Shown here: positions 1,146-5,940 of the stretch, one piece after another
How the letters are laid out: each line of letters starts with the position of its first letter
Position numbering within the stretch: the first letter of the stretch is position 1
DNA from: a virus
Taxonomy: Duplodnaviria > Heunggongvirae > Uroviricota > Caudoviricetes
DNA: 5,940 nt
Direction: 5' to 3' (one strand)
Virus record (IMG/VR): IMGVR_UViG_2778261394_000001
Span: 1-5,940 of that record
Translations under genes and position numbers: made by a program
The notes under the pieces: model-generated
What the model was told of the DNA's origin: nothing
The model's input: only the letters and a program-made list of their open reading frames with translations
Database searches by the model: none

Positions 1146-1705
1146 TTATTCTTTGTCGCTGATGAGGGAAATTTTTTATAGAGCGTGGACAGACCAATAT
1201 CAAAAATCAGTGCCACGCGTTGACGTGACTCCCCTGCAGCCAGCAAACGCCCGGCCTGCTCCCACTCACTCGTGGTGAGTTTAGGACGTCTGCCACCAAT
1301 ACGACCTTTGGCTCTGGCCGCTTCCAGCCCGGCCCGAGTCCGCTCGACAATGAGTTCTCGTTCCATTTCAGCCAGGGCACCCATCACATGAAAGAAAAAA
1401 CGCCCCATCGGCGTGCTGGTATCAATAGCATCTGTCAGGCTGCGAAAATTAACGCCGCGTTCGCGCAGTTCCTCAACCAGAATGACCAGATGCCGCATAC
1501 TACGCCCCAGCCTGTCCAGCTTCCAGACCACCAGAGTGTCACCTGCCGATAGTGTCCTGAGCAGTTTTTTAAGCCCCGGTCTGTCGGACTTAGTGCCACT
1601 GATTTTGTCCTCAAAAATCCGCTCACATCCCGCGCAGTTCAGTGCATTACGTTGCAAATCGGTGTTCTGGTCATTTGTTGACACGCGTACATAGCCAATT
1701 AGCAT
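1112..1705 (-). CDS. pin: Serine DNA invertase of the Din family (Pin/Gin/Hin/Cin-like resolvase-invertase)
   Basis: Track ORF 1112..1750 (minus) contains MLIGYVRVSTNDQNTDLQRNAL...LVVWKLDRLGRSM...GRFFFHVMGALAEMERELIVERT...GRIGGRRPKLT...LSTLYKK, with the catalytic-serine motif (YVRVST) and the C-terminal helix-turn-helix of Gin/Hin/Pin. I place the start at ATG 1705..1703 (MLIGY, 197 aa), which matches known invertase N-termini and has an AGGGGA Shine-Dalgarno 6 nt upstream. The in-frame ATG at 1750 would add 15 non-conserved residues. The stop is TAG at 1114..1112. The gene sits immediately next to a crossover site. Confidence 0.9.
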   Translation of the reverse strand: MLIGYVRVSTNDQNTDLQRNALNCAGCERIFEDKISGTKSDRPGLKKLLRTLSAGDTLVVWKLDRLGRSMRHLVILVEELRERGVNFRSLTDAIDTSTPMGRFFFHVMGALAEMERELIVERTRAGLEAARAKGRIGGRRPKLTTSEWEQAGRLLAAGESRQRVALIFDIGLSTLYKKFPSSATKNKLCHPLANRDK

Positions 1706-1732: not shown

Positions 1733-2269
1733 ATGATGCCAGTTAGCCATTATCTCTGCATTTTCATAAACGTTGGTTTGGGAGAAGGTTCGGCATTACC
1801 CGTTGGCGTGCCTGTTCCGTGGCCTTCCGCCACTCCGCCAACAGGCTGGCTGAAATGCAACGGGGCGGCTTTTTCTGCTGAAGAATACCCGGAACTGGCA
1901 AAGGTTTACCCGACAAATAAATTGCCTGATTTACGCGGTGAGTTTATTCGTGGCTGGGATGATGGAAGAGGGATTGATACTAACCGTAGCTTGCTTTCGT
2001 CACAGGGAGATACCATTCGGAATATAACAGGATTTATAAATGAAGTTAAAGGCACCATTGATACAGCAACTTTCAGGTTACAGACTGGTACTGGTGCTTT
2101 TGCCTTAGCATCTCAAGCTACGCGAAATATCTATAATAACCTAGGCACATATGAAACAAAAAATACCCCTTACACAGGATTCAGTTTTGATGCATCCAGG
2201 GTTGTACCAACAGCATCAGAGAATCGCCCTCGAAACATTGCATTTAACTATATCGTGAGAGCAGCATAA
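1733..2269 (+). CDS. Silent alternative tail-fibre C-terminal cassette (Sv'-like receptor-binding module), probably expressed only as a fusion to the H constant region after inversion
   Basis: Track ORF 1733..2269 (178 aa). The frame runs continuously through the crossover site, so codons GLGE at 1775-1786 match GLGE in tail fibre H in the same phase relative to the 2-bp core. Downstream it encodes ...PVPWPSATPPTGWLKCNGAAFSAEEYPELAKVYP...LPDLRGEFIRGWDDGRGID...RPRNIAFNYIVRA, which resembles the phage tail-collar / tail-fibre C-terminal domain family. The ATG at 1733 lies outside the segment and overlaps a hairpin, so it is probably fortuitous and the functional part is about 1775..2266. The stop TAA overlaps the next start (TAATG at 2267-2271). 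Confidence 0.7.
   Translation: MMPVSHYLCIFINVGLGEGSALPVGVPVPWPSATPPTGWLKCNGAAFSAEEYPELAKVYPTNKLPDLRGEFIRGWDDGRGIDTNRSLLSSQGDTIRNITGFINEVKGTIDTATFRLQTGTGAFALASQATRNIYNNLGTYETKNTPYTGFSFDASRVVPTASENRPRNIAFNYIVRAA
1761..1786. repeat. Invertase crossover site (hix/gix/pix-like, 12-2-12 bp) at the invertase-proximal end of the invertible segment
   Basis: Plus strand reads TTTTCATAAACG-TT-GGTTTGGGAGAA. The inner half-site plus core (1773-1787, TTGGTTTGGGAGAAG) is a perfect 15-bp inverted repeat of 3666-3680. The half-site resembles the recalled hix/gix half-site (TTnTCnnAAACC) around a 2-bp core. Confidence 0.75.
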
Positions 2270-2871
2270 TGGATAAAGCAATATTAAATAGTGAGCTTAT
2301 TGCTACAAAGTCGGGGGATATTACCGTTTATAACTATGATAGTGAGACGCAGGAATATATTTCAGCATCAACTGAATATCTTGCCATTGGTGTCGGTATT
2401 CCTGCATATTCCTGTTTAGATGCCCCTGGCACACATAAGGCGGGTTATGCTATCTGTCGTTCTGCAAATTTTAACTCATGGGAATATGTGTCAGACCATC
2501 GCGGTGAAATCGTCTATAACACCGAAACGGGAGACGCCAAAGAAATCACAGCTCCGGGTGATTACCCTGAAAATACAACCACTATCGCCCCGTTAACGCC
2601 ATATGATAAATGGGATGGTGAGAAATGGGTGACGGATACTGAGGCACAGCATAGTGCCGCAGTAGACGCGGCAGAAGCACAGCGCCAGTCACTGATTGAT
2701 GCAGCAATGGCTTCCATTAGTCTGATTCAGCTGAAATTACAGGCCGGACGGAAGTTGACGCAGGCAGAAACAACCAGACTTAACGCTGTGCTGGATTACA
2801 TTGACGCGGTGACGGCAACAGATACCAGCACCGCGCCGGATGTCATCTGGCCTGAACTGCCGGAGGCGTAG
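2269..2871 (+). CDS. Tail fibre assembly chaperone (Tfa/U'-like) cognate to the silent alternative fibre C-terminus
   Basis: Track ORF of 200 aa, translationally coupled to the preceding cassette (TAATG). The C-terminus ...LNAVLDYIDAVTATDTSTAPDVIWPELPEA matches the conserved C-terminal motif of Caudovirales tail-fibre assembly proteins (P2 G and Mu U/U' end in similar ...WPE.P sequences). A GAGAG Shine-Dalgarno precedes the ATG. Confidence 0.8.
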   Translation: MDKAILNSELIATKSGDITVYNYDSETQEYISASTEYLAIGVGIPAYSCLDAPGTHKAGYAICRSANFNSWEYVSDHRGEIVYNTETGDAKEITAPGDYPENTTTIAPLTPYDKWDGEKWVTDTEAQHSAAVDAAEAQRQSLIDAAMASISLIQLKLQAGRKLTQAETTRLNAVLDYIDAVTATDTSTAPDVIWPELPEA

Positions 2872-3286
2872 GCCATTCAATATCTGGCGCACCGGAAGTA
2901 TCGACCAGCACCAGTGCGTCCAGATAATCCAGCCACAAATTATATTGCGCCAGTTCGTCATCTTTCAGACGACCAATAGCGGCTTTACCGGGCCATTGCT
3001 TACTGTTCATGTATTCGTTGGCCTGGTTAATTAGTAGCTGTCTTTCTGATTCAGTAATTTCAATAAGCTCTTCATGCGTGGGTGGAGGAATATCTGCCCA
3101 CGCAGGCATCCCATCATCTCCGGCAATACGGATTTTTCCTTGTGGCGGTTCAGCCATAAACTCACTGATAATATTTTGATTCACCTCCTTTGCATCTGAT
3201 AAATCCCATCCCTCTGATTTATATTTATCAATCATATCCACAGGGAAAAAAGCATTATGCCTTGCGCTATAAACATATTCGTTCAT
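2843..3286 (-). CDS. G: Tail fibre assembly chaperone (P2 gpG / Mu U-like) cognate to the currently expressed fibre C-terminus
   Basis: Track ORF 2843..3295 (minus), whose C-terminus ...YNLWLDYLDALVLVDTSGAPDIEWPTPPAVQAR carries the Tfa C-terminal motif. The track start is a GTG at 3295 with no spacer after an AGG. I prefer ATG 3286..3284 (MNEYVYSARH...), which has a GGGTGA Shine-Dalgarno 5 nt upstream. The gene lies directly downstream of the tail-fibre stop (TAA 3309..3307). Confidence 0.8.
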   Translation of the reverse strand: MNEYVYSARHNAFFPVDMIDKYKSEGWDLSDAKEVNQNIISEFMAEPPQGKIRIAGDDGMPAWADIPPPTHEELIEITESERQLLINQANEYMNSKQWPGKAAIGRLKDDELAQYNLWLDYLDALVLVDTSGAPDIEWPTPPAVQAR

Positions 3287-3306
3287 ATAAATCACCCTGA
3301 ATAAAA

Positions 3307-4506
3307 TTACTCACCAACAGCCCACCAACTGTAATTCATCGATACTGTGGAACTGGTTGATGCAGTTCTGTAAGCGGAATTAAAACCGGTTAATGTTGGG
3401 CCTTCTGCAGTCATCATGAACCCTCGCCCAGCACCTAAAGGCGCACCACCATCACCAGAATGAGTAAGCATGGCGCAGTCCGCTTTTTTGGGGAAAGGGA
3501 TGCTGAATGTAATTCTCATTGTTTGCGTCGATAATGTCGGCGTAACCGCACCACGACCATATTGCAGGATTTTCCCGTTGGGTAATTTCATCCATCCATC
3601 ACCACTGGCAAAAGAGGCCATGTCCGGTATCTGATTTTCCCCTGTCCCCACATCCCGTTTTGCCGCTTCTCCCAAACCAAGGTATGCGAGAAGACCGGCA
3701 ACATCCTTTCCACTCAAATGAGTCAGCGTCTCATCCAGTGGCTGCTTACCTGACAGCGCATTGTTAATGGTGGTACTGAATTTCGGGTCATTGTTAATGG
3801 CTGCGGCAATTTCTTTCAGTGTGTCCAGCGTGGCTGGCGCACCGTTAATCAGAGCGGTAATAGCGGCCTGAACAAACTCAGTGGTCGCAATCCGCGTGGT
3901 GTTATTCCCTGCGGCAGGCGTCGGCGCTTTTGGTTCTCCGGTAAATGTCGGATTATGTTTCTGTGCATACTGGGTATGAGGATCCTGTGCGGCAATGTGG
4001 TTTCTCATCTGGTCATCCACATACAGCCTTAATTCCAGGACTTCATCATCCACGTATTTACGGGTCGCCAGTACCACCGACGGGTCGATTTTCAGCGTAA
4101 TAGCTTCGGTATTCGTGACAACCAGAATCATGCGGATAGTCTGGGTACGACCACTGCCTTCCTGCAACTGCGGTTTGTACGTTTCCGGGCAGTTCGCCAC
4201 CGCAATGAGTACGCCTTCATCATCATAAAGCCCAATCTCACGGATCCAGAATCCGCCCTCGTTCTCAGGGATGATTTGCTCCGCAATAATCTGGCTCTGG
4301 TTGTTCGGGTCAACACTCAGAAGATTCAGCGGCGCGATGCGTTTCTGGTTAATCAGTTTTGTCTGTGCCGGGTCTGGTGTCGGCAAGACACCATTCGCAT
4401 CACCAACGGCCATTTGCGTCAGATTCAGCTTACTGCCGAGCATCGTCGCGTTAGCCAGCCGTGCTGCGCCCTGATTAGTCAGAATGGCGTAGTATTTCAC
4501 TGTCAT
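3307..4506 (-). CDS. H: Tail fibre protein (P2 gpH family): constant N-terminal region (about 4506..3681) fused to the currently in-phase variable C-terminal module (3666..3307)
   Basis: 399-aa ORF. The N-terminal 200-270 residues (...MAVGDANGVLPTPDPAQTKLI...IIAEQIIPENEGGFWIREIGLYDDEGVLIAVANCPETYKPQLQEGSGRTQTIRM...YVDD...NNTTRIATTEFVQAAITALINGAPATLDTLKEIAAAINNDPKFSTTINNALSGKQP) follow the conserved pattern I recall for P2 H and Mu S tail-fibre N-termini. The crossover site falls at codons 276-280 (L-GLGE). The start ATG 4506..4504 overlaps the stop of the upstream gene (ATGA). Confidence 0.88.
   Translation of the reverse strand: MTVKYYAILTNQGAARLANATMLGSKLNLTQMAVGDANGVLPTPDPAQTKLINQKRIAPLNLLSVDPNNQSQIIAEQIIPENEGGFWIREIGLYDDEGVLIAVANCPETYKPQLQEGSGRTQTIRMILVVTNTEAITLKIDPSVVLATRKYVDDEVLELRLYVDDQMRNHIAAQDPHTQYAQKHNPTFTGEPKAPTPAAGNNTTRIATTEFVQAAITALINGAPATLDTLKEIAAAINNDPKFSTTINNALSGKQPLDETLTHLSGKDVAGLLAYLGLGEAAKRDVGTGENQIPDMASFASGDGWMKLPNGKILQYGRGAVTPTLSTQTMRITFSIPFPKKADCAMLTHSGDGGAPLGAGRGFMMTAEGPTLTGFNSAYRTASTSSTVSMNYSWWAVGE
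3667..3692. repeat. Invertase crossover site (hix/gix/pix-like, 12-2-12 bp) inside the tail-fibre gene, at the constant/variable junction
   Basis: Plus strand reads TTCTCCCAAACC-AA-GGTATGCGAGAA. The two half-sites are dyad-symmetric at 10 of 12 positions. 3666-3680 is the exact reverse complement of 1773-1787. Confidence 0.75.
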
Positions 4507-5114
4507 GCGTTTACTCTCAGGTTATCAATTAAATGAATGGCCGAGGCCGGGAAATAATCCCCTCCGACAATAATGGCCTCCGGGGTGTAGGGATAAACCG
4601 TCAGGGCGTCGCCGTGATAGCATCCCGCACCGGCAAAAATGTTGCCGGTTGTACTTAAACTGATAGCCAGTCCCGTCAGATGGCGGCTTGCAGGTTTTGC
4701 ATCAGCAACGAGACGCTCCAGCTCCTGATACATTTCCTCGGTAATACCCTGCTCAAGCACGCCAACAACGATGCGGAACGTCCCTGGCTCCTCGTTGAGC
4801 TGCCACCACTCCCTCACCTCAATCAGATAGCCGAGCGGCTCCACCACACGGCGAATCGCACCAATAGTGCCCTTATGGCAGTGAATGAAATACGCATCGC
4901 GGATAACAGCGCGTTTGGTCGCTTCCGGCCATTTATCATCCCACCTGTCGACCGAAAATGACCACGCCAGCCACGGCAGCAGATTTGCCGGGCAGGTGTC
5001 CGGGTTCCACAGCTCACGAATACTGACCGGTGTTTTTTCAATTTCCGCACAGGCTTTTGCGGCGGCAACTTCAAGCGGTGATGAGCCGGTCGGCAGCAGT
5101 CGCGAATCACTCAT
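4503..5114 (-). CDS. I: Baseplate assembly protein (P2 gpI family, phage tail protein I)
   Basis: 203-aa ORF beginning MSDSRLLPTGSSPLEVAAAKACAEIEKTPVSIRELWNPDTCPANLLPWLAW..., which I recognise as P2 gpI-like. The start ATG 5114..5112 overlaps the end of the upstream J gene by 8 bp (ATGAGTGA), and the stop overlaps the H start. This is the expected position between J and H. Confidence 0.85.
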   Translation of the reverse strand: MSDSRLLPTGSSPLEVAAAKACAEIEKTPVSIRELWNPDTCPANLLPWLAWSFSVDRWDDKWPEATKRAVIRDAYFIHCHKGTIGAIRRVVEPLGYLIEVREWWQLNEEPGTFRIVVGVLEQGITEEMYQELERLVADAKPASRHLTGLAISLSTTGNIFAGAGCYHGDALTVYPYTPEAIIVGGDYFPASAIHLIDNLRVNA

Positions 5115-5940
5115 CCGAGCCTCCGGTCACGACGCGGTATTCGGTACAGAAAGACGCCTGCGTACTGTTGAGCACGATGTCGGCCAGTGGTGCGGCCAGC
5201 TCGACACGCTGCACGCCTTCCACATGCAAAGCGGCATAAATGGCAGACAGACGGATGTCGCGCCCCAGCCGGTGCTGTGCCGTGATATACGCTTCCAGTT
5301 TTTTCACGGCGGCAGCGCGAATGGGTTCGCTTTCGGGACCAGGGTAAAGATACAGCGTGGCGTTTATCTGGTATTCAACGATGGCGGCAGACTGCACGGT
5401 CACACGGTCAGCCACCGGCCTGACGTCCTCACCATTAAGGGCGTTACGCACCACAGCCAGCAGGTCTTCGGATGCGACACCGTTATTTTCACGTGACAGC
5501 ACGGAGATGGTGACGCAGGCAGGAGACGGACTGGTAACAGAGATATCCGCGACACGCCCGTCAGCACTGCGACCATGATACTGATAGGCACCCACCGACC
5601 CGGCGACGCTTAAACCTTCAAAGGCCTGCTGAATACGCAGACGATAATCGGTGTCAGATTCCATCACGGCCGGTGTCGGCGGGAGGGTCGAATCATCTGC
5701 CGGAGTGATAATCAGGCGCGTGGTGTTGTAATTGGCACCAATCACATCAAGGTCATTACCGGCTGCACAGGCCAGCATCACCGCCCGTGCGGCCTCATTC
5801 ACACGCTGACGCCAGATAAGCTCACGATAAGCATTTTCCTCCAGCAGTTTGACGAGAGGTTCGGATTCCAGCGTCAGGGTACGGGCGACCGCCTCCTGCT
5901 GGTCTTCCGGGTAAAGGGAAATCAGTGTCGCCTTGCGTTC
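5107..5940 (-). CDS. J: Baseplate wedge protein (P2 gpJ family, baseplate J-like); 5'-partial, N-terminus lies beyond the window end
   Basis: The track lists 5107..5802 from a GTG, but I translated the same frame up to position 5940 and found no stop (...ERKATLISLYPEDQQEAVARTLTLESEPLVKLLEENAYRELIWRQRVNEAARAVMLACAAGNDLDVIGANYNTTRL...). The gene therefore enters the window already open. The sequence and its position upstream of I fit P2 gpJ. The stop is TGA at 5109..5107. Confidence 0.85.
   Translation of the reverse strand, partial: ERKATLISLYPEDQQEAVARTLTLESEPLVKLLEENAYRELIWRQRVNEAARAVMLACAAGNDLDVIGANYNTTRLIITPADDSTLPPTPAVMESDTDYRLRIQQAFEGLSVAGSVGAYQYHGRSADGRVADISVTSPSPACVTISVLSRENNGVASEDLLAVVRNALNGEDVRPVADRVTVQSAAIVEYQINATLYLYPGPESEPIRAAAVKKLEAYITAQHRLGRDIRLSAIYAALHVEGVQRVELAAPLADIVLNSTQASFCTEYRVVTGGSDE

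Follow-up and report, generated by a model that had tools for sequence, protein, structure and literature searches.

The 5940-bp stretch of DNA analysed here (the window), which is the whole of contig NMEZ01000062.1 of draft assembly GCA_002542845.1 and ends inside phage genes, very probably (probability about 0.93) carries a Gin/Cin/Pin-type invertible tail-fibre segment of a P2-like prophage, with the ORF at 1733-2269 being an alternative fibre tip that is currently unfused. This reading is based on the gene order, the identity of the invertase, crossover cores identical to those of e14, a flip that keeps the reading frame, the natural occurrence of both orientations and the fusion of the same cassette to a fibre in E. 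coli HS4. The switching of host range by inversion of tail-fibre genes is a textbook mechanism dating back to the Mu G and e14 P segments, and the system found in the window is itself already known, with near-identical elements in GenBank in phage pro483 and in an O157:H7 prophage.

In the proposed mechanism a fixed N-terminal part of the fibre (4506-3681, minus strand) ends at a crossover site encoding GLGE, with two convergent units lying between the inverted sites, one a gp53-like tip with its chaperone and the other a Collar tip with a TfaE-like chaperone. In the present state the gp53-like unit is fused and expressed, the Collar unit facing away from the fibre promoter. The serine invertase is predicted to recombine both sites and thereby reverse about 1.9 kb, after which the Collar tip would join the constant part in frame with its own chaperone directly downstream. 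Since inversion would swap both tip and chaperone, a lysogen population should release both types of particle, each with one of two unrelated receptor-binding tips, making the locus one more textbook bet-hedging host-range switch.

Gene content of the window

The minus strand of the window corresponds, by ORF map and Pfam, to the tail module of a P2-like (Peduoviridae) prophage, with baseplate J, tail protein I, fibre H, chaperone and sheath FI in the P2 order and each matching the expected family (Table 1). Taking both strands together the order is J, I, H and chaperone, then the second chaperone and second tip, then invertase and sheath, such that the P2 tail module has an invertase between fibre and sheath. 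Over the aligned DNA the window is 96-97% identical to Peduovirus pro483 and ~95.5-96% identical to a prophage of E. coli O157:H7 EC4115. The plus-strand chaperone is 90.5% identical to e14 TfaE, while the minus-strand U-type chaperone has 53% identity to e14 TfaP and homologues annotated at 444 nt; the two chaperone genes overlap tail-to-tail by 29 nt.

Table 1. Features of the tail module and invertible tail-fibre segment, numbered by position in the 5940-bp window.
Feature	Position	Strand	Basis and remarks
Tail sheath	to 1052	-	Pfam Phage_sheath
Serine DNA invertase, 197 aa	1112-1705	-	True start ATG 1705 (MLIGYVRVSTNDQ...), placed by PinE/Gin/Cin homology
Presumed recombinational enhancer, Fis-dependent 'sis'	1620-1687	-	Inside 5' end of invertase gene; by homology only
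Fixed leader MMPVSHYLCIFINV	1733-1772	+	Outside invertible segment; opens the ORF into whichever cassette faces the invertase
Invertase-proximal crossover site	1761-1787		Core 1773-1787 TTGGTTTGGGAGAAG
Sv'-type cassette, StfE-like Collar module	1788-2269	+	Pfam Collar; alternative fibre C-terminus, unfused in this orientation
U'-type tail fibre assembly chaperone, TfaE-like, 200 aa	2269-2871	+	Caudo_TAP E=1.8e-32; cognate to Collar cassette
U-type tail fibre assembly chaperone, 147 aa from ATG 3286	2843-3286	-	Caudo_TAP E=2.1e-30; cognate to gp53-like module
Sv-type cassette, gp53-like	3307-3665	-	Gp53-like_C PF21882 E=1.2e-11; currently expressed fibre C-terminus
Fibre-proximal crossover site	3666-3692		Core 3666-3680 CTTCTCCCAAACCAA, within fibre codons ...AYLGLGE
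Sc constant part, P2 gpH-like fibre gene, ~275 N-terminal residues	3681-4506	-	Phage_tail_fib N-terminal E=1.2e-62
Tail protein I	4503-5114	-	Pfam Tail_P2_I
Baseplate J	to 5802	-	Pfam Baseplate_J

The invertase and its crossover sites

The invertase matches Pfam Resolvase (E=2.7e-52) and HTH_7 (E=1.1e-12) as well as PHROG 125 'DNA invertase' (E=1e-100), and is 88% identical to e14 PinE, 85% to Fels-2 Fin, 80% to Mu Gin and 77% to P1 Cin. With a resolvase catalytic domain, a C-terminal HTH and a position adjoining the segment it has the characteristics of the DNA invertase subfamily. The listed 212-aa ORF that starts at ATG 1750 is a mechanical extension of this gene. An enhancer is annotated at +19..+86 of cin in the P7 record, and over its first 110 nt, which take in that stretch, the invertase gene has 80% identity to P7 cin as against 70% over 540 nt; inversion of the segment may depend on Fis and on such an enhancer.

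The two crossover sites form an inverted repeat of 26-27 bp with an identical 15-bp core, and contain the GLGE codons. On the gix model, with its 12+2+12 layout, the central TT of the invertase-proximal site would be placed at 1773-1774. The 15-bp core is identical in e14, pro483, O157, HS4 and EC9952, and the repeat given for e14 by Kirigo et al. is the same TTGGTTTGGGAGAAGG (PMC12529663). A scan with the 20-mer AAACGTTGGTTTGGGAGAAG allowing 3 mismatches or fewer returned two matches in the window versus none in 200 shuffled sequences, and beyond these two the scan found no extra crossover site in the window of the kind expected for a Min or shufflon-like multi-site system.

Evidence for inversion

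When the region 1788-3665 was inverted in silico, the constant part was joined in frame to the Collar tip (...AYLGLGEGSALPVGVPV...) with the frame uninterrupted. The locus thus has the layout of a fibre switch, the constant N-terminus lying outside and two opposed C-termini with their own chaperones lying inside, both in frame with it. Among complete E. coli genomes, at a coverage cut-off of 80% or more, 88 records have the orientation of the window versus 101 with the flipped one; both orientations are found in homologues with 95-97% identity, the window itself being a single contig in one orientation. In the flipped records the fusion is in frame, and natural fusions of this type are annotated at 439 aa and 514 aa. 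The view, reached in an earlier sequence-only reading, that 1733-2269 holds an alternative C-terminal cassette for the fibre is upheld by these 101 records and by the fibre of HS4, which uses the same 164 aa.

The O157:H7 strains EC4115 and TW14359 are identical over 5598 bp except for the 1875 bp between the cores, which are an exact reverse complement with no mismatch, the inversion breakpoints falling inside the 15-bp core. In the annotation of TW14359 a 439-aa fibre fusion ends in the Collar tip. Orientation varies among the three assemblies of ST2747, and in TUM11352 the chromosome copy and the plasmid copy are in different orientations. Inversion of the e14 segment and of P2-like prophage segments has been shown experimentally (PMC4272514; PMC12529663), for the P2-like prophages by sequencing of cultures (PMC4272514), and inversion in Fels-2 was inferred from comparison of the LT2 and LT7 genomes (PMC7953296).

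The orientation of such segments also affects annotation. Small entries beside invertases named 'phage tail protein', 'gp53-like domain-containing protein' or even 'integrase' depend on orientation. They are pieces of a fibre gene that can be switched, and annotation sometimes also splits the fibre wrongly, as it does in EC4115.

Two unrelated tip modules

The 178-aa plus-strand ORF at 1733-2269 is present as described, and contains the motifs LPDLRGEFIRGWDDGRG and RPRNIAFNYIVRA that had been called tail-collar-like, a description confirmed by the match of the ORF to Pfam Collar PF07484 (E=3.9e-15, 56 bits against a cut-off of 24). The cassette proper is shorter than the segment first delimited, beginning at the crossover core (1773-1787). 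A remote-homology search, which had been proposed as a check on both modules, aligned the Collar module with a solved short tail fibre (9cuy, E=1.2e-29), the T4 gp37 tip (2xgf, E=1.2e-14) and T4 gp12 (1ocy, E=5.6e-5). From GLGE onwards its 164 aa match, with 100% identity, the C-terminal end of a 514-aa fibre annotated in HS4. The Pfam and PDB matches together with this identity indicate that the ORF is a real coding sequence rather than a chance one. In HS4 the fibre gene is followed by the same chaperone and has a constant part only ~67% identical in DNA, from which it follows that whole cassettes move between lineages.

Alignment of eight homologues divides the Collar cassette into three zones, namely a collar N-half of ~70 invariant aa reaching to about 1980, a hypervariable tip insert of ~75 aa of which there are at least four unrelated types, and a conserved C-terminal strand RPRNIAFNYIVRAA that can likewise be aligned with the C-terminal end of the T4 gp37 tip. 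Against pro483 and O157 the DNA alignment is interrupted at 1966-2224. The collar strands of T4 gp37 flank its receptor-binding needle, and by analogy the insert at 1966-2224 is likely to be the specificity determinant. The insert in the window is of the type found in strains Z217-2 and HS4 and differs from that of pro483 and O157.

The 399-aa fibre ORF on the minus strand (3307-4506) ends in the C-terminal sequence that the sequence-only reading had quoted, and its gp53-like cassette also matches PHROG 4890 and 1396. The GLGE junction is encoded at fibre residues 277-280 (codons 3678-3667) and at residues 15-18 of the small ORF (1775-1786). It had been claimed that the two tips show no similarity beyond this junction, and three comparisons agree. 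The tips belong to separate Pfam families, Collar in one case and Gp53-like_C PF21882 in the other; BLASTP of the 164-aa against the 123-aa tip module detected no similarity (E=5.8); and in hhalign of 15-sequence alignments the match was confined to the leader or constant part and GLGE, leaving the tips unmatched. The hhalign hit of 91% was accordingly rejected as tip homology, lying wholly in the shared upstream leader/constant region and GLGE.

For the structure prediction that had also been proposed, both modules were modelled as monomers with AF2 from 15-sequence alignments and gave models of low confidence (pLDDT 68.9 and 63.4), as is to be expected given that fibres are trimeric. In Foldseek the gp53-like model (pLDDT 69) had as its best match the R1 pyocin fibre (6cxb/6cl5), although this was weak (E=4e-3, TM 0.47), as was the match of the Collar model to the T4 gp37 tip (E=8e-4, TM 0.30); by sequence, PDB matches to the gp53-like module were also weak. 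With models of low confidence and weak Foldseek matches the fold assignments are supportive only. The conclusion that the tip modules are unrelated, and resemble different solved receptor-binding domains, is confirmed by sequence comparison, with the modelled structures as support. By extension from the unrelated tip families and from the precedent of Mu, P1 and carotovoricin, the two orientations would confer two receptor specificities and hence an alternating host range. Mu, P1 and carotovoricin Er are cited as cases in which adsorption specificity or host range depends on orientation (PMC4272514; PMC7953296).

The unfused cassette and alternative explanations

The ATG codons at 1733 and 1736 lie in the 67-bp spacer between the start of the invertase gene at 1705 and the crossover core. 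ATG 1733 had been described as outside the segment and overlapping the invertase leader, and it does lie outside; the overlap involves only the presumed 5' leader of the invertase on the opposite strand and the ATG-1750 extension, and does not reach the invertase coding sequence. The further statement that the cassette has no plausible translation start is too strong, since an in-frame ATG with GGGG or GGAG close by is conserved from Mu to the window. The cassette had been considered truly silent, and it is indeed unfused in the present orientation, but the argument for silence from the lack of a start is weak in view of the conserved ATG, the annotated ORF and the phenotype of e14 StfE2. Silence of the unfused copy is probable. 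In the Mu S' and P7 Sv' records the homologous cassettes are treated as expressed only after inversion, and K-12 stfE and Fels-2 STM2703 are flagged as a pseudogene or probable pseudogene in curated records. It is certain that the product of the small ORF has no N-terminal Phage_tail_fib domain, and it is therefore not expected to act as a fibre, this domain being the one that would mediate baseplate attachment by homology to P2 gpH.

An alternative, on balance unlikely, is that the ORF from ATG 1733/1736 is also a free-standing gene, encoding a 177-178-aa Collar fragment co-expressed with the TfaE-like chaperone and having its own function such as receptor masking or superinfection exclusion; after inversion its product would become a gp53-like fragment. 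Such translation would add to the switch rather than replace it, as both can coexist. In its favour, the sequence ATGCCA stays in frame and in position across Mu, Fels-2, e14 and the P2-like group despite divergence of the rest of the spacer, the ORF is called by PGAP and by phage annotators, and GGGG (GGAG in relatives) ends 3 nt before ATG 1736, although this Shine-Dalgarno spacing is short and the motif is absent in Mu. The conservation of the ATG may reflect a real start codon or, on the opposite strand, the 5' leader of the invertase, and the leader peptide varies (S/A/T, H/R/C, L/F) even among close relatives. A sigma70-like site (TTGACA-16-TAGCAT) at 1678-1705 is directed into the ORF, but its hexamers coincide with invertase codons (VST, ML) that are themselves conserved and neither Mu nor Fels-2 keeps the -10, for which reason the site was given little weight and set aside as evidence of independent expression. 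The calling of homologues as silent or as pseudogenes in curated records likewise speaks against a free-standing gene. For e14, Kirigo et al. (NAR 2025, PMC12529663) report that production of StfE2, a protein made of the leader plus the gp53-like cassette, prevents T2 from adsorbing, and that a strain cured of its plasmid and carrying the segment inverted resists T2. However, the StfE2 effect was obtained by over-production from a plasmid, StfE2 is the e14 counterpart of the invertase-proximal ORF in the opposite orientation to that of the window, and the StfE-type product, which matches the orientation of the window, was 'not effective' in the same study (PMC12529663). The more specific proposal that the conserved ATG outside the segment is a real start, with the lysogen making a free receptor-binding fragment and chaperone from whichever cassette is off the fibre and with masking or exclusion coupled to inversion, is more doubtful still; if true, the function of the free fragment would complement that of the virion tip and would generalise the claim made for e14 StfE2 (PMC12529663).

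Two other explanations bear on whether the switch is real in this DNA. That it is a frozen relic, dead here and with 1788-2269 a decaying pseudogene fragment, is very improbable. The window does show a single orientation, and many related prophages are degraded, with truncated sheath and fibre genes in Z217-2 and an invertase lost to an IS21 element in EC9952, but in the window the invertase, both cassettes and both chaperones are all intact ORFs, the invertase having complete Resolvase and HTH_7 domains, and the two crossover cores are likewise intact and match each other exactly. In addition the cassette protein is 100% identical to the copy expressed in HS4, and near-identical elements show both orientations at similar frequency. 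An assembly artefact, in which a short-read contig would have misjoined repeats, might be suspected of a draft contig that makes up the whole window and ends inside phage genes; this can be almost entirely discounted, as the same colinear arrangement is present in the 88 complete-genome records and in pro483 at 95-97% identity. The preferred reading of the locus is thus an invertible tail-fibre segment with 1788-2269 as its unfused tip, and no observation speaks against the switch as such.

Relation to known systems

Among the closest known systems is the P segment of e14 in K-12 (pinE, stfE/tfaE, tfaP/stfP), which has a 15-bp core identical to that of the window together with the closely similar invertase and TfaE noted above (88% and 90.5%), the same four-ORF layout and the same out-of-segment leader (..IFINVGLGE). 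At its start (~83 aa) and end (16 aa) the Collar cassette of e14 StfE is identical to that of the window, but the tip insert differs, and the e14 gp53-like cassette is only 28% identical to its counterpart. In addition the e14 element, a lambdoid remnant, is defective and its constant part (StfP, 209 aa) is truncated, whereas in the window a P2-type tail module includes the P2 gpH-type N-terminus in full. Both the tip insert and whole cassettes have been exchanged as modules between P2-like lineages and e14, as the locus shows.

Elements of the same type and gene order are present in pro483, in the prophage of O157:H7 EC4115/TW14359, in Fels-2 (Fin) and in prophages of EPEC E2348/69. Those of pro483 and O157 carry the same crossover sites as the window but a Collar insert (about 1966-2224) of a different type, while one EPEC E2348/69 prophage has three sites and three alternative C-termini as against two sites in the window. 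The G segment of Mu (Gin; S/U, S'/U') and the C segment of P1/P7 (Cin) have, as in the window, Sc outside and Sv/Sv' with their chaperones inside. In both Mu and the window the unfused cassette next to the invertase points away from it and is preceded by an out-of-segment in-frame ATG. The differences are that the phage is Mu or P1 rather than P2-like, that Mu has GLQE as its junction peptide where the window has GLGE, and that in P7, a relative of P1, cin is on the same strand as Sv' with its 3' end overlapping cixL, whereas in the window the two are on opposite strands.

Outside the invertible systems, the Collar cassette can be aligned with the T4 gp37 tip, at its N- and C-terminal collar strands, and with gp12, and the gp53-like cassette, to be compared with R-type pyocin and AP22 gp53-like tips, has PF21882 along with the weak fold match to R1 pyocin; the modules in the window are much shorter than T4 gp37/gp12 or the pyocin/AP22 tips, and identities are low (13-40%). 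What is peculiar to the window is the tip combination only, a Collar insert of the Z217-2/HS4 type being paired with a gp53-like tip of the pro483 type.

Cassette exchange and hypervariation

Comparison of the window with the prophage of strain HS4 revealed two very different levels of conservation, with the Collar cassette (the alternative fibre C-terminus, unfused in the present orientation) and its chaperone gene being 97% identical (window 1770-2998) whereas identity drops to just ~67% across the constant part of the fibre and the baseplate genes (window 3751-5916). This disparity at the sequence level indicates that whole cassettes have been exchanged between divergent P2-like lineages. 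Within the Collar cassette itself there is a hypervariable insert (see table), for which at least four unrelated types were found among the eight homologues compared, and which corresponds exactly to the break in nucleotide alignments of the window with phage pro483 and the O157:H7 EC4115 prophage.

The first 47 aa of the gp53-like cassette, the C-terminus currently fused to the fibre, have a 97.9% identical counterpart in the lambdoid phages phi80 and mEp237. In each phage this fragment adjoins a pinL-type invertase, and the phi80 annotation treats it as an internal pseudogene fragment.

Features of the invertible region and its flanks
Feature	Position	Strand	Sequence or detail
Sigma70-like site	1678-1705	+	TTGACA-16-TAGCAT; 10/12 matches
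Terminator-like hairpin	1725-1744	- (invertase strand)	AACTGGCATCATCCCCGGTT then TTTATTCAGG
In-frame start of invertase-proximal ORF	1733-1741		ATGATGCCA; outside invertible segment
Hypervariable insert of Collar cassette	1966-2224		Invariant collar strands on both sides
Internal inverted repeat	2790-2807 / 2916-2933		
Tail-to-tail overlap of two convergent chaperone genes	2843-2871		29 nt

Sequences adjoining the invertase start

The position of the in-frame start of the invertase-proximal ORF is kept across Mu (MPCVPKSTIIQNLGLQE), Fels-2, e14 and P2-like prophages, with the spacer around it having diverged. The conserved start could belong to the 5′ leader of the invertase, or it could be a true initiation codon. 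The sigma70-like site falls inside the invertase gene, at its 5′ end, and is directed into the unfused cassette, its hexamers being composed of the conserved VST and ML codons of the invertase, and its -10 is not kept in Mu or Fels-2. The terminator-like hairpin separates the crossover site from the start of the invertase and might reduce the read-through that reaches the invertase from the fibre operon.

Convergent chaperone genes

The C-termini of the two tail fibre assembly chaperones are conserved (LDY.DA...APDI.WP) and coded on opposite strands, which accounts for the internal inverted repeat. The layout of the chaperone genes in e14 is the same as that in the window.

Annotation and window ends

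A number of database annotations are artefacts that depend on the orientation of the segment. In EC4115 the fibre is intact (399 aa; 3305-4504 of the EC4115 locus); RefSeq divides it in two, with one part entered as a 'gp53-like domain-containing protein' and the other as a pseudogene. Leader-plus-cassette ORFs make up many of the database's protein clusters with lengths of 136 aa or ~177 aa, and several 251-aa Collar proteins have been named 'integrase'. The window is a complete contig of 5940 bp, the ends of which (1 and 5940) lie within the sheath and baseplate J genes, with the assembly probably having broken at sequence of which further P2-like prophages in this genome hold repeat copies.
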